DNA of 64,000 nt from Antedon mediterranea. Taxonomy: Eukaryota; Animalia; Echinodermata. This document shows positions 18,249-60,300 of the stretch, in pieces. The notes below the pieces were generated by a model. It was not told the DNA's origin and made no database searches. It saw only the letters and a list, made by a program, of their open reading frames with translations. The translations under genes and the position numbers were made by a program. The DNA lies in contig NC_092673.1 in assembly GCF_964355755.1 (NCBI RefSeq), positions 2,790,001-2,854,000 of the forward strand. The letters run 5' to 3'. How positions within the stretch are numbered: position 1 is the first letter of the stretch; the number at the start of each line of letters is the position of its first letter.

Positions 18249-21200
18249 ATGACCGAAAGCAACCATGTTTTTAGGATTACGGAAAAAGTTTATCGTATGC
18301 GACAGTCGAAAAATTTCTTATTGTTTATCGTGTTTATGGCTCTTCTACTCGACAACATACTTGTGACAGTCGTAGGTAATGTATACATTAATTTTATTCT
18401 TTAACCTTTAAAGCTTGGTTCCCACTAGAACGTAACGCAAGGACGTAAACGCAACGCAAGCGTTTTAACCAATGACAAGCGAAGTTATAGACAGTTAGCA
18501 ATCACAAGCGAATAAGCCATCGCTTGTGATTGGTCAATTCACTTGCGTTGCATTACGTCCTTGTGTTGCGTCGCTAGTGGGAACCACGCTAAAGAAACGT
18601 GACTTCCTCAAATGGGATTTTAATTATTTTAGTGTAATTCTATCAGTGGACAATGAAGTCGATGGGGCTAATGGTTGGATGATGCCTCGGTTGACTATAA
18701 TTAATTCAATTTAATTAATTGATGTAAACTAAAATACAACTTAGTAGTGTAATTCCCATATACCTTGGTTCCTCCTACTAAGACGCAACGCAAGTACGTA
18801 AGCCGCAACCCGATCAAATCATTCCAAATGCTGCTTGTGATTGGTCAATTCGCTTGTGTTGTTGCGGGCGCGGGTTACGTCCTTGCGTTGCATCCTAGTG
18901 ACGTGGGAACGTAAGTTTTGTAGTTGAATAGTCTCATCATATTGACAGAGTACGTTTACAGATATAAAAGAAGACCAAAAGAACTTCATTTTGCATGATT
19001 TACTAATTAAACTAAACTAATTATTCTCATTGATATTCACGTGACGTCACACAGTGTCACACACTCTTGAGAGATCTTTAAGTATGTTTTTCACACGTAT
19101 TTTATTAGTACATGTTGTAGATTTATTAGACACAACCAGCACACATCGTAAAGGCAAGAATGACACATTTCAATCAATTTAGTCAGAAAATAGACTTAAT
19201 TATTTTCTTTAGGACTAGCAGAACAAAAAAAACCTATAGGGCCTATGCCTATTTGTCATGTTACTACAATAACAATATAACAGATAATACCTGGCCTGAA
19301 ATGGCTGGTTTCGTTGCTAATCTCTTTCAATCATTTTTTATAATTAAAATCAGATAAGGCCTACAGTTATCAAATTACAAATAATGTGATAGCTTTGAAA
19401 ATTAACGTACAGTTAAAATATTTATTTTGATTGTAGGCCTAAGTATTTATTTTTTCAATATTGCATGTTATATAAGGTAATGTATTTCAAAATTAAAATA
19501 TCTTTTATTTTGATCGTAATTATTATTTTTTTTTAAATTGCATTTTATACAGTGCCTATAATTCCGGATTTCTTATATGAGCAGCAAGCGGAAGATAGAG
19601 AAAAGGCATTGCAGGCGACAGAATCAGGCGAAGTATATGAAGAATTGTATGGAAATTATAGTTATTCTGCCAATTATACTCCCATCGAACCCACAGTACC
19701 TGAAATACCTGTCGAAGATACTGTTAGACAAGAAAGTGTGTACATAGGAATACTGTTTGCTTCTAAAGCTATTGCTCAGCTTATTACGAATCCGTTTGTT
19801 GGACCACTCACAAATAGGTGTGTACCATGCTGGACTGTATCTAGGCAAAATCCGTAAAACAGCATTTTATATGACACCTGTATCATAGGCCATAACCTAT
19901 ATCTTCCATGATACATCCATCACATGTGATACACAGGAGTTGCTGTATTACGGGATTTGCCTAAGATACTGGACCGTATTGCCATGTGGAGATAATCGGG
20001 TAGTCATTGAGAAATAACTCCGTGACCAATAGTTATAGGAGACAAATAGGGCTAATACAAATCAATGCTTAGCATGTTTAAATTAAACACGTCAAATTGC
20101 ACTGATTTTTTAAAAATTATAACCAAATACATTAAAAAATATTTTCCACGAAAAAGTACTAATGAATGACCGTTCAATAGTGCGTACTATTGCACGCCAT
20201 GTGACCCACAATCGTCCAATAAAATGACAGGAATTTATTTAGGTGTTATATAATACAAATCATTGCTTAGCATGTATAATTTAAATACGTCATATTGCAC
20301 TGATTCTTGATAATAACAAAATAGACCAAAACTGTTCTCTATATAAAATATTCAAGATACGTATCGTCGTTGATGATCAAAATTAAAATTTTAATTGTAT
20401 ACCGATTGAAATCGACAAAAATTGGATAGTGAAGATGCAGTTCATTTTTTCTCGGGGACGTTTTTGACATTTCTATTATTCATTTTAAATTTTAATATCG
20501 TAATTTAAAATTAATAATTATACGTATAATTATACGATGTAAAGTCAGATATCTGCTTGCCACGAAATATGATAAACGGTTATTAATGTTGATGTGAAAA
20601 GCCTCTAGGATATACCAGTGACAGGTCAGTATCCTCCTTTATAACACAAAAAACAACTCAAATTAAAATGTTAAAGAAAAATCTAATCTAACGATGTAAA
20701 TTTATAAGTATTTGCATTAGTTATACCATAGAGTCAAGTCGTGTTTGAAATAATAATTAGGGTTACTCATTTAGCTTCGATATTGAACGTTCGGGTCTTG
20801 CCGAGTCAATTAAATTAGCGATTTTTTTGTTTTTACGACGCCACAATACATTTCGCTACAATTGAGTTGAAAAGTCACCTGTACTATTATCTCAAACCTT
20901 ATCTGAAGCTTTTTATTTATTTATTAGTCAACAAAATAAAATGAATATTACTGGTAACAGGTTGTTAAGCATCAATTTGATCAATTATTATACTGTTATA
21001 TATTTCAACTAAACTCAATACTATCCTCAAAGAGACGTGTCTACCAATTGTCATAACATAAATAAAAAAGTATATATTATAGGCTTAAATAGATTATTAT
21101 ATATATAAATATATTAAATTCAAAGGCAAATTTCTGAAAAAATGATAATGCTGTGGGTATCAGTGGCTGGATCTCATTGGAGATACAAAATAAGCACTGA

Positions 21201-30879: not shown

Positions 30880-32576
30880 AAAACAGACAGATATTCTCTA
30901 ATATTAATTATTATCAAAATGGGTCGCTAAATAAAACAAATATGCCATAAATTATTTTTCATAGACTAAAACGTAGAATAAAGTAATTTTATCGATGTAT
31001 TTTTTTTTCTTTGTTGTTATTTAACCTTTTCAACCTTTAAACAAAACTATTCCATTATTTTGTATACGTTGACAAATTACTCACTTTTATTGCTGATCAT
31101 AAAAACAAAATATAGGTTAGTTAATTTTTTCCAAATACCAATACCCCGTTTATTGGATCAGTTTGAGACAATGTAAATATATTTTAACAGTAGGTAAATG
31201 ACCAGTATAACTTGGTAAAAACTACCGGATTACCAAATATCTATGGCCACGTTAATGAATGCTTAATGAGATGGCCTATCAGTGCTAGGAGGAAAGATGT
31301 TCCAATACTGACATTCGAAGTATATTTTTTGCTAATTTTACCTAAAAGCCGATGTATTCAGTATAGACCTTGTTACGCATGCGCATTAGAAGTCTGTGGA
31401 CAGATTTATTCAGGATGGATGCATATGTAGAAGAAAGCGAGCATGAAATGAAAAAATCGACAATAATTAGGAAAACAAATGAATGTAAGTGTACGCTTGA
31501 ATCACTGGTTGGTTCAAACATTGTCATGTAATTGTCTGTAAAATTATATGTATTCTCTATAATTTGTTTTCGTTATGTCAAGAACAGTAACCAAATAAAG
31601 TCAATCAAACAAAACATTTTCATTTATTATTTTAAGCGGCGCCTTATTTTACTTCTCGCATAGCGTCAACACACGGATATAAGTGGTGATAAAAGTGGTG
31701 TACAAGTGTTTTTACTGTGGATCTACTTAAGATTCGTTGGCTGTTTTCAATTGGAGGATATCAACTGATTAATAATACTCCTTGTTTCCTAAGTGAATGA
31801 TTCAAGATACAAAAAGAATACGTAATATTGATGGTAAGAGCAGTTTAATAAGCATTGGGTAATATCGAGTAACCTTGAAATAGAACAATCGTATTGTTTC
31901 ATTGTTTAAGAAAATCTTCGATTTAAAAACTGAATAACATACATCAATATTCTTAATTTAAAACACGTTTAGTTAATTATGTCGGGTCGATTTCTTTACA
32001 TTGAAATTCCCCGTCGTGAATAATACCACGTGGTCTAAAGAAAAGCAGTGGATTACATATCACTTCGATTTCGTTTTAAATAATTACATTTCAGCGGTAG
32101 ATTATTTCTGAATGGTATTTGTTTTTTGGTATTTACAACTGGTTCACTTAAATGTGAACTCTATAGATTCATCCCCACACCTAACGTTCGAGTTAAAGCA
32201 TAAAGCTATGATGATGGTGGAGGTTTTCTTTCTGTAGTAGATAATAAGATGATATTCAATGTAGATGTAGCCTAGAGAGTTAGGATCCGATCGATCCGTT
32301 CCTAACTGGTGGGAACCGGCGGGACGGAGTTGTCCGAATCCTCGAAACTACCACCGATTAATCATGGTAATACAATCATTTAGGCGTGTCTTTAATCAAG
32401 TGTCATCTGGGTTTTAAAATTGATAGTATGCTATTGGGATGATAGGCCTACTCAGGGATAAAACAAAGGAAATCGCTTAGATTTTAAGCGGACGTTTAAG
32501 TATGGGCTTGAGACGTTTAATAATGTAGACAATGCTTTGAGATCGCTCATTTTTACTCGGTTACAGGTTAGACAAG

Positions 32577-35500
32577 ATGGCCACAACATCATATATTCTG
32601 GTAAGATACACGATTTATGGTGTAAGTAGTTGTTTATAGTTAGTTTAGTAGTTAGATATATATTTTATTTAGGGTTTGAACTACTAAAGTGATCAAAATG
32701 AGTATACATTAATGTCGAGGCTATACTGTATATAGCTAGGCCTATTGTATTAACCACGTGACTATGTAGCGTCGGTTTATTTATAATATATATATATATT
32801 TCCTTTAGGCCTATATTTATAATAATGTAGACACTAATTTGTTCTTGAGCTATGGAGAAATTTGTACTCTGTATTATTTTTTCGGAAATAAAAGATGAAA
32901 TGAAATTAAAAATCGAAGGATACGGCGGACTGCGCATGTTATGTTTATTATTGTGTATTAATGTATACTTATTGTTTAGATGCTTCCAAAAGCTTTCCAA
33001 CTAATTTCCATTATGGACTGCACCTAATTTTACAGATACTTGCTTTGGTAATTTTTGCTGCTGCGGAAAGAGGCGATGTGGAGGTATCGCGCCGAGTAAG
33101 AGCTGCGTCCGATGTAGTTTTGAAATTTAAAGGATGTCGCATGTAAGTTGATATCAATACATTACACAATAACAAAGAGTTTATTTTTAATAATCTATTA
33201 GGCCTATCTGCTACTGTCAAAGTGTATCTTAAGCACTGTCTACACATATCAAACTTTATGTGACAACAAAATGTGGCTGATGATTTCATATGACTACCAT
33301 ATTTGGGCACATCACATTTTTTTGTCAAAAAGATTACCTATAAAAAACCAGTTCAACAGTTCCTAATCCCTTTGTTTTCACAGATTTAATGTGGAATGTT
33401 TACATTTGCAAGGAAACAACGAATAAGACTAGTACCTATTTATCGCGGTGATTGCGTTCCACATTTCATTTCATTTCATTTATTCCACATTTATTTAGTC
33501 ATCAATTACATTACATCATAATTAAAGTACAACTGAAAACAGGGATCCTGCATAAAAAAGCTGTAGCTTCGTTTTTTTGTAGAACCCTTCTACATAAGAA
33601 CAAGTATATAGAACTTAAATAAAACAAAGGTGTTGTTAAAAAATGTTCCATAGATATAATGATAACAGTTTCATCATTATTTCAATCCCTAAACACAAAT
33701 CTGGGTCAGAAAATAATAGTAACGATTAGATATACATAAATAATTTTCTTGTGATAGCATGGTATACTACTGTTAAGCATTTCCCTAAAGGGCAAATCAA
33801 ATACAAATATATAAACTGAAAGATACACAAATTATGATAAATAAGTTAACAAACGTTTCATAACTAAACAACTTTTTTCATTAAACATGCAATATATTTT
33901 GTAATAGATAACATAACAAAAAAATATGCAGAAAATAATGTAAATATATATATGAGATTCTGTAATTGTTGAATAAAGGTGGTAGTTAACCACAAAAGAT
34001 AAAAAAAAAAATAATAATAATTTTCTATTTATTTACTGATATATTTTTTTATTTTTACAGTACTAGTGACCAAGCAAAACTAATAACCGCTCTTTATGGG
34101 GAAATACTAAACGTTCCAAGAAGGACTGGGAGAAGCGTTCGTGCTGCTGGTCTATTTGGTGTCAGTAGCAGCTTACAGACAACGGATGAACCGACAGTGG
34201 AGCCAACAGCAAATGTAACAGGAAGTGAATCATTATTGGAAGCCAAAAATGCAACAGACGCACCTCAAGAAAGTCTACAAGACATCAACAAAACCAAAGA
34301 AGAGGCAGGACACGGCAATATAGAAACCAACTTGCAACGGCAAACAACGCCGAAACCAATCGATAACTACCAGGATCAGGATGGCGGGAATAACCCGTCT
34401 GGCAATAAATGGAGTTCTTGGAGTTCTTGGAGGACATGGTCAACGGGACAACAGGAACAACCACATAATCCAATAAATAACCAAGACCAAGGTGTAGACC
34501 AGAACCCGTCTGGTAATGATTGGAATTCCTGGAGGACATGGTTCACAGGGCAACAACAACCACAAACCGACCAAAGACCAGAGAGAGGACAGAACCCGTC
34601 TGGTAATACCTACTGGGAGACCTGGTCTACATATGGACAGCAACCAACTGGGAGCAAAGACCATGATTGCGAAAATGATAAAGAGCAGTCAGAGATAAAC
34701 AGAGGACAGGCGGCTTCACTAGGTCATCGGGTATCTGGAATACAGGGCCCAAGGGGAGAAAAAGGCGGGAAAGCTCCATCTAACTCTGACAATACTAGAT
34801 CAAGTTGGTGGAGGACATGGCAAGATCAAGGCACACAAGCGCCGTCTAATAGTCCAGAGCCATCAACAAGTCAAAGTCCATATCGTACTGCAAGGGCCAA
34901 TTGGTGGAGAACGTCTAATTGGCAATATGGTCCTACAAGCCAAGTATCAAATCAGAGGAGACAGGGAACACGAGACGGTCAAGGAACTTATTCAAGTAGT
35001 TCATCTTGGTCAAGTTGGTGGACAACTTCTACTGGACAACAAGGCCCTTCGGGTAGTCAAGGACGTAGAGGTACTCAGGGTAGTCAAGGTGGACAAGGAA
35101 CAAGAGGAGAACAGGGCCCGACTGGAAATCATGGACCTCAAGGCGGGCAAGGGCAAACAGGAAGACAGGGTTCATCAGGTAGACAGGGACCAAGAGGAAA
35201 CGAAGGACGGTCAGGTGACCAAGGTCCACGAGGCGTACAAGGACCGAGGGGAAGTCAGGGGCCATCAGGTGGTCAAGGAAGACAAGGACCAAGAGGAGGA
35301 CAAGGACCATCAGGTAGTCAAGGACCTAGTGGTAGCCAAGGACCTCAAGGAAGACAGGGTCCACATGGAGGTCAAGGACCTCAAGGAGGACAGGGTCAAC
35401 GTGGAGGTCAAGGACCCCAAGGAGGACAAGGGCCAAGGGGAGGACAAGGACCATCAGGTAGCCAAGGACCTAGTGGTAGCCAAGGACCTCAAGGAGGACA

Positions 35501-37140
35501 GGGTACACGTGGAGGTCAAGGACCCCAAGGAGGGCAAGGGCCAAGGGGAGGACAAGGACCATCAGGTAGCCAAGGACATAGTGGTAGCCAAGGACCTCAA
35601 GGAGGGCAGGGTCCACGCGGAGGTCAAGGACCTCAAGGAGGACAAGGTCCACGTGGAGGTCAAGGACCTAAAGGAGGACAAGGACCAAGGGGAGGACAAG
35701 GGCCGAGTGGTAGCCAAGGACCTCAAGGAGGACAGGGTCCACGTGGAGGTCAAGGGCCTCAAGGAGGCCAGGGTCCACGTGGAGGTCAAGGGCCTCAAGG
35801 AGGACAAGGGCCTCAAGGAGGACAAGGGCCTCAAGGAGGACAAGGGCCAAGGGGAGGACAAGGACCAAGTGGAGGACAAGGACCTCAAGGAGGACAGGGT
35901 TCACGTGGAGGTCAAGGACCAACTGGAGGTCAGGGAGCATCGGGTAATCAAGGACCACAAGGAGGACAGGGTCCACGTGGAGGTCAAGGACCAACAGGAG
36001 GACAGGGAGCATCGGGTAGTCAAGGACCTCAAGGAGGACAGGGAGCATCGGGTAGTCAAGGACCTCAAGGAGGACAGGGAGCATCGGGTAGTCAAGGACC
36101 TCAAGGAGGACAGGGAGCATCGGGTAGTCAAGGACCTCAAGGAGGACAGGGAGCATCAGGTAGTCAAGGACCTCAAGGAGGACAGGGAGCATCGGGTAGT
36201 CAAGGACCTCAAGGAGAACAAGGGCCCAAAGGAGGTCAAGGGGAATCAGGCAATCAAGGACCCAGCGCGAGACAAGGTTCATCGGTCATCCAAGGGCCTA
36301 CTGGACCACAAGGAGGTCAGGAAACACAAGAACCACCACGGGGTCGTGATTCGTCAACGAGCCAGACGACCAGGTACTCATGTTCTACAATAACTAAGAG
36401 CAAAACTATTACCAAGGGAAAAAACAAAAGTGGAAAATCAGTATCTGTATTTCAGGGAACACTTTCCGATGGAACGAAATGGTATCAGACCATAGACAAG
36501 ATAAAATGCAAGTAAGTAACCTGTAGTGACAATGATGAACACGTATCATTCACACCCAATAAGTTTCAATACCTGGTTAATATTTTACCTAAAATAATCT
36601 ATATATATTTAAAACAAGGCCATATACATGGCTGGATCATCAGTCGCGTGTTCAAATTTGAGTTAGTGTTTAACAACCGACCGACCGACCAACCAACATA
36701 GTGAGCTATAGCGTCTAAAAATAATTTTGATATGACATTTTTGGCAATTTCCATTGTTAGGCTACACATTGTAAACTATTAAACCAACTCTTTGCAAAAG
36801 AATGTCTTTGCACAGACACCAGAGATCTGGAACCAACCTCGTTCCATCCGTTACACTACATCCCTTTTTCAATTCAAATCTCTCTTGAAAACTCACCTAT
36901 GTTGCGTTGTGCAATGTTCGATATTATTATTTTTTTATACATTAAATTTCAAATTAAATTGTTATTTTTAACAGGGGTAGATGTGGTGCAAACGGACAAT
37001 CTAAATGCGCTGTTAAATACTGCTATCGACAGGTCTTGGTTTACACAGGCTGCGGAGACGCTCAGTTCGGCGTTAATCTAGAGTTTCAAGAGGTCAAACA
37101 ACCATGTAGCTGCATATGCAAAGACGATCGCTACCAATAA
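32577..37140 (+). CDS. Secreted ~915 aa protein: signal peptide, Trp-rich repeats, long Gly-X-Y tract, C-terminal Spaetzle/neurotrophin-like cystine knot (gene A)
   Basis: Exons 32577-32600, 33036-33142, 34061-36511 and 36975-37140 join in frame (2748 nt) at canonical sites. N-terminus MATTSYILILALVIFAAA. C-terminus YSCSTITKSKTITKGKNKSGKSVSVFQGTLSDGTKWYQTIDKIKCKGRCGANGQSKCAVKYCYRQVLVYTGCGDAQFGVNLEFQEVKQPCSCICKDDRYQ. The first-exon choice is less certain. Confidence 0.8.
36800..36900 (+). mobile_element. L2-type LINE C-terminal fragment in the last intron of gene A
   Basis: Degenerate ...PEIWN...FKSLLKTHL coding remnant, similar to the clearer copy at 61057-61200. Confidence 0.45.
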
Positions 37141-37596
37141 TAAGCCAGGATTATGGTGGGCTACATAGGGTGTGACTGATAATTCATATGATGCATTAAA
37201 GCGCGTACCATCGATGTACGATGCCAAGAGTTATCAACAACCGTTTCACAGTTTAATCTATTTGTTTGTAAAACATAATATGAAAACGAATGTAGTTTAT
37301 ACTATTTCATTTTAATCTCAACGTTTTGATCAACTTGTTTTATTTTGTATAATGATATGAATATGAATGAATGAAACAAAAATGCAAATACGGCCGTTCC
37401 CTACAAATTTAACGCATAATGAGCGTATTGTTTTAAAAAAATGACTCTTTGTATATAAAATAAATAAAGATTAAAAATGAAAAAAAAAAACACACAAACT
37501 ATTGCATTCTCTAGAATAATGACGATCACATGTATGAGGAAAGAATGGAAAGAATGAATGAATGAATGAACAAACAAACGAGTGGATGATACTAAC

Positions 37597-38496
37597 AAAC
37601 GACTGGAAGAGAGGACAGACTAATGGATGGAGCAGTGGCCAGGCCACTGGAAGAGAGGACAGAGAACTGAAAGAGAGGACAGACGACTGAAAGAGAGGAC
37701 AGACCACTGGAAGAGAGGACAGGCCACTGGAAGAGAGGACAGAGGACTGAAAGAGAGGACAGACCACTGGAAGAGTGGCCAAACCACTGCAAGAAAGGAC
37801 AGACGACTGAAAGAGAGGACAGACCACTGGAAGAGAGGACAGACCACTGGAAGAGAGGACAGAAGACTGAAAGAGAGGACAGACCACTGGAAGAGAGGAC
37901 AGACCACTGGAAGAGAGGACAGAAGACTGAAAGAGAGGACAGACCACTGGAAGAGAGGACAGACCACTGGAAGAGAGGACAGAGGACTGAAAGAGAGGAC
38001 AGACGACTGAAAGAGAGGACAGACCACTGGAAGAAAGGACAGGCCACTGGAAGAGAGGACAGAGGACTGAAAGAGAGGACAGACCACTGGAAGAGTGGCC
38101 AAACCACTGGAAGAGTGGCCAAACCACTGGAAGAAAGGACAGACGACTGAAAGAGAGGACAGACCACTGGAAGAGAGGACAGACCACTGGAAGAGAGGAC
38201 AGAAGACTGAAAGAGAGGACAGACCACTGGAAGAGAGGACAGACCACTGGAAGAGAGGACAGAAGACTGAAAGAGAGGACAAACCACTGGAAGAGAGGAC
38301 AGACCACTGGATGGAAGAGAGGACAGACCACTGGAAGAGAGGACAGACCACTGGATGGAAGAGAGGGCAGACCACTGGAAGAGTGGACGACGACTGGAAG
38401 AGAGGACAGACGACTTGCTTAAAGAGAGGACAGACCACTGGAAGAGTGGACGACGACTGGAAGAGAGGACAGACGACTTGCTTAAAGAGAGGACAT
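37597..38496. repeat. 20 bp purine-rich minisatellite (agaccactggaagagaggac) x about 43
   Basis: Tandem units with alternating variants (agacgactga, agaagactga, agtggccaaacc). It explains all the overlapping long ORFs at 37471-38548. Confidence 0.95.
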
Positions 38497-40056
38497 AGGA
38501 TTTAAAATGCGTGTCAAAAATTGACGCGAACGAATAAAGATCCTCCATATTCCAGGTCTACAGTACACTACTATAGAATAACATTGTTTCCTTTGCAAGA
38601 GAAGCCTTTAGTCCTACGTATGTTACCTACAACTTTATCCGTAGGTTGTAAAGAAGTTCTTATTTGGATATCCATTCTTCAATACTTACCACAACATCGA
38701 GGGACTACACACAATTTACCACAAACTACGTCAACAATAATAAAGAAAAACATTAACACAAAATTCCAATTGATTTCCAGTCAGTCAAAACTGTTTCCGG
38801 CCTGTTTCCTAAAAGCATTAACAATAACAATTCGTGGTCAACGTATTTACGTCAGTAAGTATACAAAAAAGTGTCTATCCTCGCACCACGTGACTTCGAC
38901 AACCAAGTGGGACACTGTTACATTAATGTCTGTGACGTCATATCGACGAAACATTACTAATTTTAAATGCAATATTAAACTATTTTAATTTTACACATCA
39001 AGAATGATTTATAGTAATGGAAGAACGTGACTATATTTTTATATTACTTAATTTGATTGTGTGTGCTTAAAATAGGCTAAATGAAAATAAATATTAATCC
39101 TAACTACCACTATCGATTATAATTTATTGTATTACGTCACGTAAATTCCATTAGGAAAAAAAAAAAAAATTTTTTTCTAATTTGTTTTAGTAGGCCTACT
39201 AATATTAAAGATATATTGTGCCCTTGAAAACAATAATTTAAAAAAAAGTTTTTGATAAATATGCCATTTTAATGTCACTAATATGACCAAAAGTTGGACC
39301 GAAAAAAAAATTGTCTTCTTGAAAATACTGTAACTTAAAGCAAAAAATAGTCAACGTGACGGGAAGTCAATGTTTTTTTTGGTTGAATTTAACCGTTTGT
39401 CTTTTTACAAGTGAAATCCCTTTTTTAAAATTTTGTTTTCTACAGAAGTGATTAATTTTATTTAAAACTGCGAATGGCCTATTCAAAGTCTTTTAAAACT
39501 CATTAACCTACATTTTTATGTTTTTGGGGGACAATACATCTTTAGTAATAATAAAAATCCTGATTTGATTAAAACGCATTTTTATATTTAGGTTAAAGCT
39601 CTGTCTACACTATCAAACTTTTGTTCCAAAAAATGTGATGTGCCCATATATGGACACGATAATGTCATATCACACCATATTTGGATATATCACTACCATA
39701 TTTGGGCACATCACACTTTTGTTGTCAAACTAGTTTGATAGTGTAGACAGAGTTTAAGATTCTCAAGGTAATCTAACTTCTTTTTAAAGTTGTACAGAGT
39801 GCGACACAAGAGTTATGTCACTGACACACATACACAAATATTGGTCCTTGGTTCAACTAGATAAATCATTATGGAATTATAAATAGGATTAAAAGATTAC
39901 AAATAATCTGATATAATATCGACATCATCTGCCAATGATTCTATTATTAAATGTGTTTTATTTCCGTTCCCATTAGATACGGCCACGTTCAGATTTACGT
40001 GACCACCAACATTCGAAATCGTTCCAGTTGACTGGTCACAAGCCGCGTGCCATAGA

Positions 40057-40063
40057 TATAAAA
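40057..40063 (+). promoter_or_regulatory. Candidate TATA box of gene B
   Basis: TATAAAA about 80 bp upstream of the ATG of the first coding exon. Confidence 0.4.
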
Positions 40064-40140
40064 TGTAGTCGTAGTTAGCAATCACTTTAGTAACTTTTGA
40101 GCATTCGGACCTTACGTTTCGTATACGTTATTTTTGCTGC

Positions 40141-42054
40141 ATGATCAAATTGAGAAAAATGGTGAGTATGATAAAAATTGTTTAAACATATTGAAAATTA
40201 TGTGAACGAATTATGTCAATGTACAGTAAGACTTATAATTAACTAGGACTAAAATTTACGAACCTTTTTTTGCGCGACGACTAGAATATTACACATACTT
40301 CGTACTGTTCTTGCTATAATTTTAATATCGGAATATTTGAAACCTTCATTTAAAATTTTGTTTTAATAGATGTTATTGCCAATGATAGTTATTGTTCTGG
40401 TGGTGGTAGTTGACGGTGGCAGTCTAGGTAAAACGAAGGGGCCGGTGTTGAGAGGCTTAACGTCCCGTAACTATCAGAAACGATCGGTTTTGAATATGCT
40501 TAAAAGAAATGAAATAGGCCTACAGCAAAATAAACACGTTTCAAAAATTGAAGACGATGAAGATGTGTACATGTTCGTTGGTGAATGTACAATGTAAGTT
40601 ACAATGAATGTCTATTATATATGAATATATTATATTCATCATCATAAAATCTTATATTATGCATGTAATTATTATACTGCATATTATACTTATTTATATA
40701 AACAAAATAAGTATCATTGTGCAATGTAATGTTCGGAAATAGTGAAAAGAATGAAATACAGTATTTTGAAAAAAAAAAAACAAAATACGGTTTGCTTTAT
40801 ATATTTGTTCTTCATTTAGCAACATCTTTATACAGGATTACACAATCAGGTAAAAGAAAACCTGTTTTGCATTGTGGTACAAAATGGATACAAAAAAAAT
40901 CAGGGAAAAAATGTTTAGTTTATTGTGGAAAATATACATGGCTGCAGTCGCGTGCTTAAGTTAGTTTTTACCGACCGACCGACCGACATAGTGAACTAGA
41001 GTCGCGCTGCTACACAACATAGCCAGCAATAAAGGGAACACCCATATAAATTTGTCTGTTTTTTCTCAAGGATGTCTGGTTCATCTCATGGGGGTAAAAC
41101 AAAACCTATATCCGTATTGAGATACAAGTGACGTCAACGTTTACGTGTGGGTGGCACTATTAATTGACATTAACAATTACAGTAATTTAACGTCAATCTT
41201 CGTTTTTTTTTATTGTTTTTTGAAAATTATTTTTTTAGAACGAAAAAGCAAACCAATCTTATATTAAAGGCCTTTGGTGGAATTCTTCGTCAAGATATTT
41301 TTCTAAATGATGATGGAGAAACTGCTGAAAAAAATGTTTTGTACCGAGATTTAAAAGACAAAGATATTAAGAAAAGATACCAAGAGATCAATCAACATGA
41401 GATACGAAGAAGTCTTCTTGTTCATAATGAGAAATCATTAATGGCATTAATTAAAAGGGCTGGACGAAGAAATCAACCAGATAAAGAGGATACATCTGGA
41501 ACACAAAACAATGACATCGAGAAGAGTGCTGGGAAAACGCCTGAACGAATCGGGTATACCAGACATTGAGAGAAAGTGGAATTATTTTACGGCGAAAGTG
41601 TTGATTCCAGGATGAAAGTTTACCAGACTAAAGATAAAAAATGCAGGTAATGATCATTTTATAAACTTTTCAAACCGAGAGGCTAACCATCATTTCCTTA
41701 AAAATTGTTTACGCACTTAAGCTCTGTCTCATTATACTATCAAACTAGTTTGAAAAAAAAAGTGATTTCCCAAAATATGGTAGTGATATACACTCAATAT
41801 GGTAGTGATATGACATCATCATGTCCATATATGGACACATCACATTTTTTTTGGTCAAGTTTGATAATGTAGACATGGCTTAACTCAGTTGATTATCAAC
41901 TTTAAAAATCTTGTTTATTTTTTCCAGATCACATTTACAAATTGCATTAAGTCATCGAAACGAATGCTACACACCAGCATTGGTCGTGAAAGGGTGTGGT
42001 GACGGTGATTTTGGTGTCAAACTGGAATTGCAACACATTAGGTGTGGTTGCTAA
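40141..42054 (+). pseudogene. Paralog of gene A lacking the Gly-X-Y tract, with in-frame TGA at 41567-41569 (gene B: pseudogene, null allele or readthrough gene)
   Basis: Exons 40141-40161, 40370-40593, 41239-41646 and 41928-42054 have the same intron positions and phases as gene A. EDVYMFVGECTI|TKKQTNLILKAFGGIL aligns with SDVVLKFKGCRI|TSDQAKLITALYGEIL, and ECYTPALVVKGCGDGDFGVKLELQHIRCGC* aligns with YCYRQVLVYTGCGDAQFGVNLEFQEVKQPCSC. Confidence 0.7.
40925..41010 (+). mobile_element. Short interspersed element with (ccga)n microsatellite between gtcgcg motifs
   Basis: atatacatggctg..gtcgcgtg...ccgaccgaccgacc..catagtgaacta..gtcgcg. A second copy lies at about 36622-36715. The layout recalls Helentron/DINE-like non-autonomous elements. 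Confidence 0.5.
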
Positions 42055-42576
42055 TCACCACTGGTGAGGCCAGGAGTCAGGCTAGGTATTACAGGAATCA
42101 TATCTTCATGATATAATTGTTTATTCTTAAGCTAGTTTGATGATGTTCCTAAATATGGTAATGATATTCTTAAATATGGTAGTGATATGCTTAAATATGG
42201 TAGTGATATGGCATTATGTGCACATCACATTTTTTGTCACAAAGTTTGATAGACAGAGCTTTAGATTAATGTACAGGCCTACATTTACATATCTTTATCG
42301 ATATCGTGAAGAATCATTTAATTTATATTCTTAATGAAAATATCTACAAATGCTATAAGAAGACAGAAGTGCAATAACATATTTATAAAAAACTTTATTT
42401 CAATTTCAGTATAAAAGTCGATTGTTTAAAACCCATTTAATTAATATTTAAAACAATAAAACACTACAAAATAATAGGCAAACATGTATTTAAAAATGTG
42501 TATAAAAACACCAATATATATAATCTGCATATCTGGGCTTATCTAGCACCACAATTAAATTTATGATTGAAAGTTT

Positions 42577-45500
42577 TCACGACTTCTGTTCTTCTGTTTC
42601 TGAAAAGATATATTTGCATTTATGAATTAAAATATGCATATTAAATTTATCATTATTTATAATTTATACTAAATGTGCGACTTTTTTTATATTAAAATTA
42701 AAATAGATTAATTTATTTAGAAAGAAAGTATACTTGTAATCAATTCATTTAAAATTAGAACACATAAATTACAGTACAGTATATGATAAAGAATTGCATA
42801 CGTACATTTCATATTTATTAAATAAATAATATTTTATTATTTATAAATGTGCAATTTATTTTATATTAAAATTAAAATAGATTTATTTAGTAAGACAATA
42901 TACTTACAATAAAATCATTTCAAAATAGAATGCATAAACTACAGTATAATGTTTAATAAGGAATTCCATACATGGTTCATATTTATTAAATTAATAATAA
43001 ATTTGTATATTTGTAAAACATTGTGTAGTTTACCTTTGGTTGAGTTATGTTGTTTTTCATCAGTAATTTCTGTTTTTGGTTTTACATCTAAACTGAGTTT
43101 AGTTGGACTGGTGATTGAGTTATTGTTCTTCGTTGGACTGTCACCCCTGTCAATCAAGTCCCATGGGGGCGGGGCTTGGTCTTTGATACGTCGCAAGGCA
43201 TATTTGAAAATACCGAACCCAGACATTCCAGTTGTAAACCAGTATTTTTCGACTTTGTATAGTCCTGTAAAAATATAAAAAAAATAAATTGTTTAGGTCA
43301 CCTTCTATAAAAAAAACACAAATATATACGGAATACTAATCAAGAAGGCCCCTGGTTCGTCAGCATACGCTGTTTAGGGTCACCCTCTATAAATAAGGTA
43401 AAAAAAAAACACCATTTTTTAAATATATGGTCATTCAAAACTTGTTTCAATAATGTAATTGTAACCAAAACTGAAAACAATGAAATATCATATGCTAAAA
43501 ATAAAATATTATATAAATAACACTAATAACTTGAAGAGCTTCAATAAGTATTAACCATGTCTACTAAATCGATTTGAATAAGTGTTTATTTTTTTTTTTA
43601 ATGAATTTAAATTATTATATTACTTTTCCTAAGTATAGAGTAATAATGAACACATACCATCGTAGCGATAGCCATCTTCTGGTGCGAAAGGACTGTCAAG
43701 TTTGTAGCCACGGATTACGCGAACCGGTTTGCCGTTATCAACATTGCGACTTAACGCTAAGTTAACTGCAACACAATTTATGTTAATAATAATATCAACT
43801 TATAAAGGAAAAAAACAGAGTGGGGGACATGTGCAGACTTCAATTTTATGTGCAAGGTATAACCCTCTGTCTACACTATCAAATTAGTTTGACAAAAAAA
43901 GTGTGATATGCCCAATGGTAGTGATGTGCCCAAATATGGTAGTGATATGCTATCATCATGTCCATACATGGTCCACATCACATTTTGTTGTCACATAATG
44001 TTTGATAATGTAGACAGAGCTTAAGGTACACTAGTTATAAAAGGTGCAAAGTCAATAATATTGTTCAAATGAAGGGCCTACCTTTGGCTAAGGTTTGGTC
44101 TTTCGACTGTGGTGCAGTTCTCAGATTCTTTGGATTAGCTTTTGTTCCTTTCAGATCTCTTCCACCTAAAAAAAAAACAATTACTTTTTAAGCTTTGTCT
44201 ACACTATCAAACAAGTTTGACGAAAAAAATCATGTGCCCAAATATGGTAGTGATATGACATATGGGCACATCACATTTTTTTGGCAAAGTTTGATAATGT
44301 AGACAGAGCTTTGCCGCCTTATTATTCTAGTAATCATTTTATACTCTTGTAGGATAACTATCCAGTGTAAATTAAACATGGTTCTCAAATTTGGGGTGGA
44401 GGGAAAGCGGTGCACATGGTGGGTTTTGTAATTCTATCAGCATCTTACCAGATCCAGTGTATGTGAAGCAGTCACCAAGATCGATGTCATCTTCATAACC
44501 CCCAGATAGCGCTAGAGAGTAGCAGCCTTCCTGTTCATTGCCATGAATACCAGCTACTGTTGGCCTATGAATGCCAGCTGCTGAGCATTCCATTCTAGAC
44601 CACCACCAAGTACCAACCTCTACCCCTAAAAATTTAACAAGAATTTGTTATTTGACATACTTGATACAATATTAAGTATATAGAACAATGATGTTCAATG
44701 TACATTGTTGTTTTCAAATCTTCTGATAAACGTTAAGCACACGTATATTTTAATTCAATATTTATAGTTCATTTTATTTGTCCAAAAGGAAATTCATGTT
44801 AACATACAATTGTAAAAAAAATTAGTTGAAGGTTAGTAATACAGAAAAAGACAAAAATATTTGAAAAATATGACAGAGCTACAATAAACAATGAAATTAA
44901 CTTTGTTGATTAAAAAGCTGGATTGATTCTTCCCAAGCATTGTATTATCATTAAACTACACACCTGGTATACTGCCATATGAGTTCTCTCTTGGAAGTGC
45001 TTTCTTCTTTGGCTTGTAGTCAGCATCCTCAGAGAAAGAGTCCTCCTGCAGCTCCATGCCTTCTAGTGCTTTCTAAAATATTGATTTAAATCACAATAAA
45101 CATATATTAATTACTATAAAAAAAATTCTATATGCAAAAATTTTTATTATTATCGTAACACTTATTTGTGCACTTTGTATTTAACAATAAATACCTGTCC
45201 TTTGAGTCTTCGGGATCGACGGTGACCATTAGAAAAATCACTGCCATCTTCTGATTTGAACTCGACACCTTCTTCACGAATGACCACCTTTCGCGGTGTT
45301 TCTGGACGGGATTCTCGCTTTCTTTTCACAGTCTTCTTTACAACTTTAGGAAGTCTTTTAAACTACGCAGAAACAATTTTAGCATTATGACAAATTATAT
45401 ATTTAGTTTACTGCATCAATGGTTGCATTAAAAGGAATAGTAAGCTATACTACGGCTATGATACGGCTGGGTCTCCACAGTCCCCCTCTAAATTTCGCAA

Positions 45501-54352: not shown

Positions 54353-57300
54353 ATGTTTTTATCACTAGTACCATCTCAGATAACATGTCTTAGATCTTAT
54401 AAATCGCTAGCTAACCTCTCAAGAGCTGGAAAAAGGCACATTTACTCAAGGCCAACTTCCACCTACTCTACCCCGAACGAAGAACCGAAGACAAGTTACG
54501 ATGCGATCGTTATTGGCGGTGGACATAACGGTCTGGTATCGGTAAGTCAAGGTCTAGGCCTAGACAGGTAAACAATTGTTTGAGTGAAATAAGGCCATTT
54601 CTTGAATCATCATATTATTTGATGACAAGTTAAAGTTTAGGTTATTGGAATTTGCAATATAACATTGAATTATAATTAATTAAATGTCAAAAATATTTAT
54701 TATTATTTTTTATTATTTTACCCAACAACAGGCTGCATATTTACAGAAAGCTGGTTTGAATACTGTAGTACTTGAGAAAAGGCATGTGATTGGTGGAGCT
54801 TCCGTCACTGAAGAACTAATTCCAGGTGAAATTCCGCAATGCATGCGTGAATACGTACGAACAGAGTTTCCACTATGTATGGATACTAGTTTTCGTGTTA
54901 TTTTATGTTCAAATTGCGTAGCGCAAGTTCAAATTGCACAATTTAAAGATCTTTGAGCAATTTCAAATTGCGCATAACACATGTAAGGTAAAATCTAACT
55001 GTCTCTTCATTTTTACTGACTTTCAAGAGTGTGACAGCATGGAGCTCTAATTCTATAGCTCCATGGTGACGACAGTATAATCTGGTCTGAAAAAATACTT
55101 AAATACTTTAAAATAGTAAATGTATTTTATTTAACTTTTTTAAGGATTCAAATTTTCTCGATGCTCATATGTCCTAAGCCTGTTAAGACCAGATATTTAT
55201 GACGATCTAGAATTGAAGGTTAGTGTCAAATTAGTGAAATTAAGTAATGAAAATATTTGTTTAATTTGTATTTTTTAAGTTGTTTTTTACATAAATTTTA
55301 AATGAAGTATCTTTCCATTCAGTTTCATTTTAACTAACAAAATAAAATACATTACAAACAATTCTATACCAAGTATTTAAAATTCTATGTTTTTTTTATT
55401 CAGAGACATGGATTGAAAATTCACTTCCGTGAATACAACGCTTTCACACCTATTCTTGAAGATCCTGTCGTTGGAGGTCATCCAAGGTCATTGCTTCTGG
55501 GTTCACATGATGATGAAAATTATAAACAAATTGCTCAGTTTTCAAAAAAAGATGCTAAGGTTAGAACATATGACAAATATTTGATAATGATAAGATTAAA
55601 CGAGAACTTGCTACTGTAAAGGCCAATTTACAGTAATGGTAAGTGGAAAACCATGTAGCTTGTCCCACATAGAATCTATCTATCCTAAGTGGAAACCGGC
55701 CATCCATTCTGCGTTGTGTGTAAATGGTCATAAGAAATGACATATGTTCTATATTGTTATTACCATTAACGCTTGTCTATGGAAATTGGCCTTATAAGCA
55801 GTAAATTATATATTAAATATATTTGTGTTGTTCAAAAGTACAGTACAATAATGTATCACTTTTCTTCCCAGAATTATCCAATTTATGAACATCAGCTTCT
55901 GAATATGGCCAAAGCGCTTGGACCTCTACTGGACAATTCTCCAATAAATCTTGGAAACATGACAGGTTCCCTATTACAGAAGTTGGAGGAGGTGCACTCG
56001 CTAAAGGCCCTACTCTCCACAGGTAATATTTAAAGTATATTTTATAATCTGTATTTTTGTAATTATTGTTCATGATTCCTCATCTTGAAGAAATAATGTC
56101 TTCCTTATAGATATATTGGATTTTTTTGTTGAATATGCCATTTTAAAATACATCTTTATGTTTCATTACTAATCTTGGGATATTCTGAAGTTGATGCCAT
56201 AAATATTATTATATTTATATATATATATAATTATATTTTTTATGTTAAAGGGCAAGGGATTGGATCGGATCTGCCAGCTTTCTATGAACTGCTCACTGCA
56301 CCAGCTATAAAGGTATAGGATGTAAATACAGTTTAATAGTGCTATTAGGCTGTGATGAGAGATTCATTAAACGTTTAAATATAAACATTGTCTGTTACTG
56401 TATACAGTTTTTGCTTTTATTTATTATATAACTTTACGTTATTAGTTATAGTTTATGTACAGTATTGAAATCATCTTCCCATACAGGTTCTTGAAAAGTG
56501 GTTTGAATCGGAGCCTTTGAAAGCAACATTGGCAACTGATGCAGTAATTGGAGCCATGTTGAGTCCAAGCACGCCAGGCAGTGGGTATGTTTTAGCAGGC
56601 TTGAATGAGTATTCGAATCTTCTGACCTCAGGAGCAGTTGTGTAATGCATGGGGCAAAGGCCCCTGGCTTAGCACTCCTAAGAGGACCTCCAATGCTGGG
56701 TAGTTGTATTTGGGTTCCTATTGCACTGGAACCTCCAATGCTGGGTAGTTGGATTGGGGCTGCTCATGCCTGGGACTCCAACATGCACTGGGATCTTTAA
56801 CGCTGGTTAGTTGCATTGGAGCTGCACTTGGCCCCTTAAGCTCTGGAGCATCTGGGTTTAGCCAGTGAGTGCTCATAGCAGTACTGCTTAGGAGAACTAT
56901 GAATATTATTGTATCATCATTTTACTAACATTTCAGTTCAAGCAACAATTAACTCTTGTGCTCTTTTGTTAACAGCATACAAATAATGAATTTGTATGAG
57001 TTGAGTAAAGAGAATATTATGAGTTAAAAAATTCACTGTTTTTTTTAGTCAGGCTTTTAAAGAATGAAATATTCTCTCCATTCAACAAATACAAAATGTT
57101 CATTATTTATTTATATTTATTACTAAAGTAAACTTTTATTCAATAAATCTGCTTCTTCCGTCTTCAATATTGAAGGCTATATAATATAACATTTAATTGC
57201 ACTTTCAATTTATTAATAAACCATGCTTATATCATCATACTAATGGTATTGTTTTTTTAGCTATGTTTTGCTACATCATGTCATGGGTGAATTAGAGGGT

Positions 57301-60300
57301 AAAATAGGAGCATGGGGGTATGTTGAAGGGGGAAATGGTGCGCTTTCTGAGTGCATTGGTAAATCTGCTAAAGAACACGGTGCCACTATTTTAACAGAAA
57401 AGGTGAGAACATTGCAGAAAATGCTAAAACATAGTAGTGGTACATTACATTCTGTATACTGTACAATCAAGCAAAAAAAAGTTTAATTAGCAGAAATTGT
57501 AATAATTAAATTATTTATGTTATCATCATTGTACTATTTATTGTACTATTTACTATAAATCACCAAGTTTTTATCCCTTAATTGTGTATGCACTATGAAT
57601 TATTTTTCTAGTCTAATCTGTAGTATCATTTTGAGTTTTACAATTCTTTTTCATAATTGATTTAAATCTCTATTCCACTAAGTAATCTTTAACATTTTTA
57701 GCCAGTGTCTTCAATAATGTTAAATGCTGATAACAAAGCATGTGGCGTTGTCTTAGAGGATGGTACAGAGATCCACAGTCACATTATACTATCAAACGCT
57801 ACACCACATGTGACGTACAAACAGCTTGTGCCAGAGGGATCCCTTCCCAGTGACTTTGTTGAAGAAGTCAATAAAATTGATTATACTTCACCAGTTACAA
57901 AGATAAATGGTGAGAAATATGTTACTTCTTAAAGCTCTGTCTATACTGTCAAACAAAAAAGTGTGATGTGCCCAAATATGGTAGTGATATGCCCAAATAT
58001 AGTAGTGATATGACATCATCATGTTCATATATGGGCAAATCACATTATTTTGTCACATAAAGTTTGATAGTGTAGACAGTGCTTTATGTAATTTATTTTA
58101 TCATAGTTCACATTTGATATATTTTGTTTACCTTGTTTTTGAAGCAATAACATGTAAAAAGTGTTCCCCGAATTGGTGGTGGTCACAGTGCTAAAACATG
58201 CAAAACATCAACTTTCCCAATACCGGACACCTTTGAGCTAATATGCATGGTTTTCCTTAAAGTCTGGTATTCGGAATGTGTTTTTAATGGTAAAAGGGAA
58301 TTTAATACCTTTTGGTCCTTAAGAGAAGTCTGGTATTGGGAGAGTTTCCGGTTTTCAGAGACTCCGGTATTGGGAGAGATGACTGTATTATTAGTGTTCT
58401 CTTAATAGGATTGTCATCTGTGTTGAAGTGTCTCAAATGAGGAGTTCTACTATATAGTTTTAATTAGACAATGCCTTTTTATTGTTTCTTTTTGCCAGTG
58501 AAACCATAGGAAATGCCGTTTGTATATGTATTTTAGTTAAATGATGATTTTACATTTCAGTGGCTGTTGATCGCATACCTAATTTTCTTGCAATGCCTAC
58601 ACCAAAGAACAAACCAGGCCCACACCATGGTTGTACAATTCATCTTAACTCAGAGACTTGTCCAATGATAGAGGATGCATACAAGGTGGCTATGGAGGGC
58701 AAACTCCCTGAAAAGTAAGTATCATGTGCCCTTTTAAAAAAAATAAGTATGTTACCACAACAACACCCGTCCCCACAGTGCCATAACACCACACCACACC
58801 CCCCACCTCTTGTGAAACATGTCATCAATCTATTTTTTTCCAAAAACATTTTTTTTTCAAATTTTAGGCCAATGATAGAGATGTGTATACCATCGTCCTT
58901 GGATCCTACCATTTCACCAGAGGGTCGTCATGTAATCTCGTTGTTCACTCAATACACACCATATCATTTCAAAGATGGGCGTGATTGGGATGGAGATATG
59001 ATGGATAAATACAGAGACATAGGTAACTAATTTAATCACTTTGTTTGTTTCAATTAATACATTTTCTGTCTTGTTTGACATTTTTTAGTGGTCTAAGTAC
59101 AAATATAGGTGTTTATAATGAGTGTTTTACCTTGTTTGTAATTCCAGTATTTGATGGCATTGAGAATTATGCCCCTGGGTTCAAAGACAGCGTAATTGGT
59201 GCTGATGTTCTTCCGCCTCCTGAACTAGAAAGAATATTTGGACTAACAGGAGGGGTAAGTAATTGGTTTATGCAAGGCAAACTAACAACAGGACACTGGG
59301 CTCGCCTTGCCAAGATAGGAACTCGTAACAGTCCTTTGATCTTATGTCTGGCTGCAACAAATACCAACAGTACTGTACTATGTACATATTCTCTCTGATG
59401 CTCTGTGTCTGTTAAGAGGAGTGGAACTGATCGTGTTGCAGCCACAGATAAACACTTTGATCTCCTGAGCTCAGCATCCTGTTGTTAGATTGACTTGGTT
59501 TATGTAATAAAAATAACTATGTAATAATATAATTGATTTTTAGATAACTACAGTATTCGTTTATTAATTTTTCCATTAATACAATTCAATTCCTGTTGTA
59601 TCCTAAATAATTTAAATAATTTTCTAAATCCGATATTTTTCTTTTATAGAATATTTTCCATGGTGCTATGTCTCTAGACCAGTTATACTTTGCTAGACCG
59701 GTTTCATCTAGAACTGGATACCGGTCTCCACTAAGCGGTCTTTATCTCTGTGGTAGTGGTGCCCATCCAGGTAATGAAGCCCTCAACATGTTATTGGCAT
59801 TATCACGAGTGGAGTTGTGGCTTGGTGGTTATGATGCTGGGCTAGCAATTCAACGGTCCTGGGTTTAAGTTCTGTCATATGTCAGGACATTTTTCTAATG
59901 ACAAATCACAACTCCACTCCCAAAGGCTTGTAATAAGACTTTGTTTATGTAGAGCATCTTGTGTATATGTTGTCTTGTGAATGGGATTGCCACCTTTAAG
60001 AAGGATAGTGAATGAATTTGCTTATGGTTATCCTTGACAATGTGCCTAAATATATAAAAACATAACAAACAAAAACAAAACAAACATCAATTACTTTAAG
60101 TCATGGAAAATATGGCTTTCATTATAAAGTCATGGAAAGAAAGAAAATATATTTTTATTTTTATTTATTTATTTATTCGGTATATAAAAATATATTACAA
60201 AACGTCAGTCAAGGACTGAAATGAATTGTATTACAAATAACTAAAAATTAGTTAAAATTGCTATAAAAATAGAAACATCTTATTAAAATTAGATATCGTA

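Follow-up and report, generated by a model that had tools for sequence, protein, structure and literature searches.

Collagens with a globular C-terminal head, including C1q/adiponectin, the collectins, the ficolins, ectodysplasin A, CTHRC1 and gliomedin, have, to our knowledge, only three-fold domains as heads, and the growth-factor cystine knots known to us are two-fold ligands or polymer caps. The stretch of feather star (Antedon mediterranea) DNA analysed here (NC_092673.1, positions 2,790,001 to 2,854,000, 64,000 nucleotides; hereafter the window) contains a four-exon gene, termed here the collagen-knot gene, in which a long Gly-X-Y tract is followed by a C-terminal Cys-rich domain very probably of the cystine-knot cytokine fold. 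Collagens of the head-and-stalk type and polymers capped by a knot are both familiar, but the searches made returned no protein that unites the two. It is possible, though somewhat short of probable, that the attached knot serves for assembly, capping collagen rods and joining them in an extracellular network. The proposal is built from observed parts, i.e. the splicing, the triplet periodicity, the Cys pattern, the positions of basic sites and a collagen-free tandem paralogue.

The product resembles the head-and-stalk collagens in its predicted secretion, in a Gly-X-Y stalk that ends in a globular head at the C terminus and in furin-type trimming sites upstream of the stalk; unlike theirs, its head would be of a normally dimerizing fold, and its much longer stalk lacks Pro at position Y. 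The gel-forming mucins, like von Willebrand factor (vWF), share with it a long low-complexity chain ending in a cystine knot (predicted in the feather-star protein) that could join chains, and an odd Cys count, but the feather-star protein has no vWD domains or PTS (Pro/Thr/Ser) tract, its Cys pattern is not that of CTCK domains, and its spacer is Gly-X-Y. Mucin is among the multi-domain carriers of the cystine-knot fold in the accessible text of PMC4079206.

Knots with a C-x-G-x-C ring, i.e. those of PDGF/VEGF, TGF-beta, the glycoprotein hormones, DAN/gremlin and CTCK proteins, share with the feather-star domain six knot-spaced Cys, a Gly between the second and third of these, and C-x-C at the end. 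The feather-star III-IV and IV-V loops are of 7 and 34 residues, close to the 6 and 33 of VEGF, and a model of its finger 2 matches these knots weakly by Foldseek and VIA. By contrast, its finger 1 is longer (41 residues) and without Cys, its finger 2 has three extra Cys, it is fused to the Gly-X-Y triplets, and it has no sequence-level match to such knots. With the neurotrophins (NGF, BDNF, NT-3; echinoderm NT/NT2) and Spaetzle the product shares a predicted signal peptide, a pro-region and a probable C-terminal knot; unlike in these, ~740 residues, including the collagen tract, lie inside the pro-region.

Gene structure and transcript support

The gene is confirmed as real and spliced from four exons (Table 1). 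Once joined, these give a single open frame of 915 residues with its TAA stop at 37140, and the three introns are GT-AG, of phases 0, 2 and 2. A preliminary description had proposed four exons and a junction from 36511 to 36975; both are borne out, exon 4 and the end of exon 3 together encoding a C-terminal domain of 100 residues with nine Cys. Exactly this junction is made by one contig of run X1 (463 nt skipped, GT..AG; 255 letters on the shorter side), and a second X1 contig skips 33142 to 34061 (GT..AG) and 32599 to 33035 (GT..AG at cut +1), the last with a short side of only 29 letters. The introns are read through unspliced in the other runs (X2-X4 for the 3' part; X2, X3 and X5 for the 5' part). 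Five public runs contain the 3' part of the gene, none of the five being on record as RNA; X1 is guessed to be RNA, and is treated as such because of its GT-AG joints, and the remaining runs are one single sample. The splice support is thus that of one run of one study. The contigs examined lie outside 35051-36249, the middle of the repeat, and the 5' and 3' parts are assigned to one messenger RNA because the genomic frame is continuous through the repeat.

Table 1. Features of the collagen-knot gene and its tandem paralogue (positions in the window)
Feature	Position	Strand	Remarks
Exon 1	32577..32600	+	ATG and start of predicted signal peptide; joint in run X1
Exon 2	33036..33142	+	predicted signal-peptide hydrophobic core (to ~residue 18), furin-type RRVR (33090-33101), Cys42
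Exon 3	34061..36511	+	pro-region, Trp-rich region, Gly-X-Y tract, linker, first half of Cys-rich domain
Second furin-type site RSVR	34131..34142	+	residues 68-71; by sequence
Ser/Thr/Gln/Asn-rich (Trp-rich) region	34395..35033	+	18 Trp in 213 residues, 8 W-x-x-W matches
Gly-X-Y tract	35034..36266	+	137 uninterrupted triplets, 411 residues (369-779)
First half of predicted cystine knot	36375..36511	+	Cys818, Cys860; finger 1; three strands predicted
Exon 4	36975..37140	+	second half of predicted knot (Cys864, 872, 877, 887, 905, 907, 909; finger-2 hairpin), stop
AATAAA	37459..37464	+	candidate poly(A) signal by sequence
Tandem paralogue	40141..42054	+	exons 40141-40161, 40370-40593, 41239-41646, 41928-42054; 259 codons and stop

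An alternative acceptor at 36760 was rejected, its product being truncated and without contig support. A stop-free +1 frame across the repeat (34723-36393, forward strand; 556 codons, rich in Glu, Asp, Lys and Val) was likewise rejected as a shadow frame, because variation sits on the third positions of Gly codons and the spliced exons fix the frame. Such a shadow frame could mislead gene callers.

The Gly-X-Y tract

The long Gly-X-Y repeat that marks the collagen superfamily is present, and Pfam Collagen (PF01391) matches with 88.4 bits against a cut-off of 27.2; the collagen-like spacer of about 400 residues in the preliminary description, part of a probably secreted protein, is supported. 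Its units mostly alternate Gly-Pro-(Gln/Arg/Ser) with Gly-(Gly/Ser)-Gln. Of the 137 triplets, 50 have Pro and 40 have Gly at position X; at position Y, 89 have Gln and none has Pro. The first-position Gly is kept in all 137, the Gly codons being unchanged at positions 1-2 (0/137) and changed at position 3 in 49/137. The tract uses 27 different triplets, and as many as 19 of these occur among its first 25. Because of this diversity, and because Gly codon changes are confined to position 3, the periodicity is not merely that of repeat copying: judged from the codons, the three-residue register is under selection, not just copied. The COLFI and C4 (NC1) domains of fibrillar and type IV collagens found no Pfam match in either half of the ~100-residue C-terminal domain.

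The tract is predicted to form a collagen triple helix of low stability, the helix being expected to be weak because there is no Y-position Pro and 40 triplets are Gly-Gly-Y, both of which are linked to low stability in the accessible text of PMC8233474. In another reading, which we consider quite unlikely, no triple helix forms: the tract would be elastic or gel-forming, or would fold within one chain into a polyproline-II bundle, and the knot would pair chains by their tails, as happens in mucins and vWF. The same composition (Y-position Pro 0/137, Gly-Gly-Y 40/137, 31 charged residues in 411) would suit such a chain, as would the resemblance of the hexapeptide to Gly/Pro/Gln repeats in elastomers such as glutenin, spider silk and cnidoin and the presence of a vWF CTCK domain among the VIA matches described below; the mismatch between a two-fold knot and a three-fold rod would also disappear. 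However, elastomers do not need an unbroken Gly register over 411 residues, yet it holds even in the diverged first 25 triplets, although a polyproline-II bundle would keep it too. Gly-Pro-Arg, of which the tract has 13 copies, is reported to be stabilizing (PMC8233474, same text), and polyglycine, when clamped, can join a triple helix (PMC13673506, accessible part).

Fold of the C-terminal Cys-rich domain

Between Cys II and III of cystine knots lies the conserved Gly. The feather-star domain has nine Cys, at residues 818, 860, 864, 872, 877, 887, 905, 907 and 909 (spacing 41-3-7-4-9-17-1-1). With Cys I-VI assigned as 818, 860, 864, 872, 907 and 909, the spacing becomes 41-3-7-34-1, with C-x-G-x-C and C-x-C. 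Six Cys are then spaced as in a knot, and a Gly stands between the second and the third; in the accessible text of PMC4079206 the superfamily is defined by a conserved Gly together with six invariant Cys. Shuffled sequences contain C-x-G-x-C followed by C-x-C in 281 of 20000 cases, and knot-like Cys distances in 12 of 20000, the bounds for the latter having been chosen after the sequence was seen.

Modelled alone, exon 4 forms one long hairpin, with one of five models confident (predicted local distance difference test, pLDDT, 75.5). The first 13 Foldseek rows obtained with this model are VEGF-family, IL-25 or IL-17 proteins (best E-value 0.42, none at 0.001). With VIA, 12 of 16 rows are cystine-knot proteins matched on the C-terminal finger, one of the 12 being a Fab-antigen entry assigned by residue range; the best row has Z 3.1 (root-mean-square deviation 2.6, 51 aligned), with NGF at Z 2.4 and vWF CTCK at Z 2.1. 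Foldseek and VIA share the one model. In the ESM Atlas, five of the six rows listed for exon 4 are NGF/Spaetzle, Spaetzle/IL17, IL17, Spaetzle and Noggin clusters; the best score, 0.84 (recognition 2021), is below 0.9 and gives a lead only. The Atlas and Foldseek rows for the exon-3 half (unnamed small proteins; chemokine- and enzyme-type proteins) were set aside as uninformative. Of the checks proposed in the preliminary description, Pfam gave no match of either exon half to a knot family, and the VEGF, IL-25 and IL-17 rows of Foldseek are non-significant.

The Cys spacing and the weak but concordant fold and embedding matches make a cystine-knot cytokine fold very probable. It could be argued that no score is significant, that any long twisted hairpin may match knot fingers and that four of the nine Cys are lost in the tandem paralogue, so that the domain might be an unrelated Cys-rich beta module, knot-like by Cys pattern only, on a lineage-specific short collagen with an orphan cap. 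We regard this as very unlikely, in that Atlas, Foldseek and VIA converge on knot proteins for exon 4 (the last two from their shared model) and in that the C-x-G-x-C and C-x-C spacing is rare among shuffles.

Relation to neurotrophins and Spaetzle

Three vertebrate neurotrophin genes were available for comparison from 11 metagenome loci, eight of which were set aside as non-neurotrophin; we take the three to be NGF, BDNF and NT-3. These genes (L002, L005 and L009) are intact within metagenome contigs and presumably derive from host DNA.

There are points of likeness to the neurotrophins, including a I-II spacing of 41 compared with 42-44 residues, a Gln seven residues before Cys II, a best Atlas cluster of NGF/Spaetzle type and modest anchored similarity in finger 2. 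The latter comes from the segment 872-907, one of three Cys-anchored segments tried, for which 21 of 2000 shuffles reach the score, compared with 239 of 2000 for the finger 1 segment; Cys872 is favoured as Cys IV because 872-907 is the only well-scoring segment. Whole-domain similarity to the three neurotrophins is not above that of shuffles (499-757 of 2000 reach the score), and hhalign gives a probability of 0.05, pairwise and hidden Markov model comparison being likewise not significant. The II-III spacing is 3 residues (C-x-G-x-C), not 9 as in the three neurotrophins. The consensus motif around Cys III-IV given in the accessible part of PMC2772990 is absent from the domain and present in all three control neurotrophins. 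The NGF family keeps only the six knot Cys (accessible text of PMC4079206), whereas the feather-star domain has nine. Because the motif is absent, the II-III spacing differs and similarity is not above shuffles, the domain, although resembling a cystine-knot cytokine, is on sequence grounds no neurotrophin. Of the original likening to NGF and Spaetzle, the growth-factor fold is therefore retained as probable, from the Cys spacing and the Foldseek, VIA and Atlas results, and neurotrophin membership is dropped, given the missing motif and the C-x-G-x-C ring. Pfam PF16077 (Spaetzle) matches neither exon half, each scanned separately; the Atlas rows leave an affinity to Spaetzle as a lead.

Processing would also differ from that of neurotrophins, in which a convertase site releases the mature knot. 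Residues 776-822, which include the 36-residue linker before the domain, have no R-x-x-R or dibasic site, only single Arg residues. The furin-type sites all lie upstream of the tract, at residues 27-30 and 68-71, so the N terminus would be trimmed and the knot not released, unlike the knots of NGF and Spaetzle, which are released from pro-proteins. Upstream of the tract, a hydrophobic N terminus and these two Arg-rich sites are present as first described. The N-terminal stretch is the only one in the whole protein with hydrophobicity above 1.6, and is likely a signal peptide; its presence, with no membrane anchor in the hydrophobicity profile, agrees with the secretion of cystine-knot growth factors. 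An acidic spacer separates RSVR from the Trp-rich region, the W-x-x-W motifs of which correspond to the C-mannosylation consensus, and further basic sites occur at 319-322 (RTAR) and 343-344 (RR). A Pfam scan of the pro-region and the Trp-rich region gave no family match. Among run variants, six of eight within 34226-34861 (pro- and Trp-rich regions) change a residue, the sample being too small to test; two linker variants are both silent and none is listed in the knot-coding part.

The single Arg residues matter for another reading, that the protein is a tethered or multivalent ligand, its rod anchoring or clustering a cytokine like Spaetzle, IL-17 or the neurotrophins, which would be displayed in threes or cut free at a single Arg. 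C1q, the collectins and ectodysplasin display their heads in threes, and Spaetzle, which binds Toll, is activated when a trypsin-like protease outside the cell cuts after a single Arg. Arg815, three residues before Cys818, could be such a cleavage site; NGF/Spaetzle, Spaetzle/IL17 and IL17 clusters head the Atlas rows, the knot domain is basic (17 Lys and Arg compared with 7 Asp and Glu), and the tandem paralogue looks like an ordinary cleaved precursor. In the accessible part of PMC2772990, Spz genes expand in tandem in Daphnia, with a proposed immune role. The neurotrophin motif is, however, absent and no furin site adjoins the knot. The half-domain queries returned no homologue from a library in which proteins of the crinoid Anneissia japonica are present, and the paralogous exon is only 42% identical, which together disfavour a deeply conserved receptor ligand, although immune ligands can also evolve fast. 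On balance we consider this reading unlikely.

Homologue and literature searches

The homologue queries were half-domains of ~50 residues, with which distant relatives can be missed. Against the protein library, the first knot half (exon 3 region) gave 26 candidates and no match, and a two-sequence exon-4 alignment (library lengths 96-2000) gave 10 candidates and no match. Four phmmer matches over 1.84 billion representatives were all FG-GAP repeat proteins and were rejected as spurious. The PDB sequence searches returned none, one irrelevant match and none. Pfam scans of the halves, the pro-region, the Trp-rich region and the paralogue pieces returned only Collagen and a sub-threshold Pacifastin row. 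Since the collection includes Antedon and Anneissia japonica proteins and still gives no match, the spliced product has seemingly escaped annotation.

No protein uniting collagen with a growth-factor knot was found in the literature searched, which was largely the main text of open-access papers. The accessible part of PMC9793003 mentions neither neurotrophin nor cystine, and that of PMC11336682 describes the larval adhesive pit with no protein of the collagen-knot kind. The architecture, unrecognized in the preliminary description, thus has no record in the proteins and literature searched.

A tandem paralogue and the origin of the gene

A second copy of exon 4 at 41965-42051, missed in the preliminary description, was located by tblastn within the window, and belongs to a paralogue (Table 1). 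This has four predicted exons with intron phases 0, 2 and 2, as in the collagen-knot gene, and a signal-like start; its exon 4 is 42% identical to that of the collagen-knot gene, and its knot part is homologous (score 107, reached by 0/1000 shuffles). The two genes have in common a motif of the pro-region that spans the junction of exons 2 and 3 (score 45, 1/1000 shuffles), at 33135 and 34061-34110 in the collagen-knot gene and 40580-41300 in the paralogue. It consists of a Cys followed by Leu-Ile and then Gly-x-Ile-Leu, and resembles a motif near the N terminus of the precursors of trunk, noggin-like proteins and invertebrate neurotrophins. A Pfam scan of the shared motif and the paralogue pieces gave no family match.

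The paralogue has no collagen tract: ~110 charged residues stand where the collagen-knot gene has ~740. KR/RAGR/RR at 154-159 precede its knot-like part, which has five Cys, four of the nine being lost. The argument that both partners of two disulfides have been lost is not relied on, since the terminal Cys align ambiguously. Codon 192 (41567-41569) is an in-frame TGA; Rfam has no match in 32000-45000, and there is therefore no SECIS support for reading it as selenocysteine. The paralogue is probably a pseudogene or a null allele. Comparison of the two genes suggests that a small knot precursor gained the Trp-rich and Gly-X-Y tracts within its pro-region. In the simplest history, the gene of such a precursor would have been duplicated in tandem, with one copy growing both tracts in the variable part of its pro-region and the other decaying, the direction of change being inferred.

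A model for knot-capped collagen

If the knot is an assembly cap, the protein would be secreted and then trimmed at its N-terminal furin-type sites, the tract and knot staying joined; such trimming would resemble procollagen processing rather than growth-factor release. The knot disulfides would pair 818-872, 860-907 and 864-909, the first (I-IV) threading the ring closed by the other two. Collagen helices rise ~0.29 nm per residue, so that three chains, if wound over 411 residues, would make a rod of ~120 nm. Without Y-position hydroxyproline the rod would need a terminal clamp, for which a disulfide-rich cap fits. Cystine knots normally pair two by two; two-fold heads on a three-chain rod cannot close, so branching and outward bonding would follow, and the odd ninth Cys could bond to another chain. 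In the feather star, the product may form a gel, a glue, a coat or a fine fibre.

Several observations weigh against this model and the fold on which it depends. The tract has only 2 Lys for cross-links, and its composition (no Y-position Pro, 40 Gly-Gly-Y triplets) is unfavourable. The fold models and the Pfam scans treat the two exon halves separately; the remaining exon-4 models score 40.7-47.4, the exon-3 half has no knot match in Atlas or Foldseek, and all fold scores (Foldseek E 0.42, Z 3.1, Atlas 0.84) are below significance. The neurotrophin comparisons by whole domain and by hhalign count here too, and the half-domain queries of the protein libraries found no orthologue for a conservation test. 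The role of the protein is a guess from its architecture.

Other features of the window

Just downstream of the collagen-knot gene is a purine-rich tandem array of ~20-base units (37600-38500). Short dispersed repeats, likely miniature transposon families, occur at 33220-33330, 36630-36715, 39600-39760, 41720-41880 and 43860-44020, the first two having very high depth in all runs. A vesicular amine transporter exon lies at 19537-19857 (forward strand); 19558-19794 is 100% identical over 79 residues to an Antedon mediterranea record and 63% to one from Anneissia japonica, in agreement with Antedon mediterranea (Crinoidea), or a very close congener, as the source of the window. Exons at 523-954 (forward), 44372-44647 (reverse) and 55338-59398 (forward) resemble, judged by their translations, a seryl-tRNA(Sec) kinase, an SRA-domain protein and a PYROXD2-type oxidoreductase. 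An open frame of 307 codons with a Ser-rich middle and without an assigned family is present at 4828-5751 (forward).

Implications

A chain that carries both a three-fold rod and a two-fold knot must resolve a symmetry mismatch, and would represent a novel means either of building collagen networks or of displaying a cytokine in multivalent form. Because no prolyl 4-hydroxylation is needed at Y, the tract can be made in bacteria and tested directly. That a seemingly unannotated product lies beside an annotated neighbour points to a class of secreted echinoderm proteins, rich in repeats, that may go unannotated. Seldom can the origin of a fusion be viewed side by side, as it can here with the tandem paralogue. 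A more far-reaching proposal, which we hold tentatively and as somewhat unlikely in full, is that a collagen free of hydroxyproline took over a cytokine-type knot as its assembly cap, that three-fold rods joined by two-fold knot heads would self-assemble into a branched, disulfide-locked network, and that the decayed paralogue records a change from signalling to structure in crinoids. If true, this would be a principle of collagen assembly distinct from those of fibrillar C-propeptides, type IV NC1 domains and C1q-type heads.

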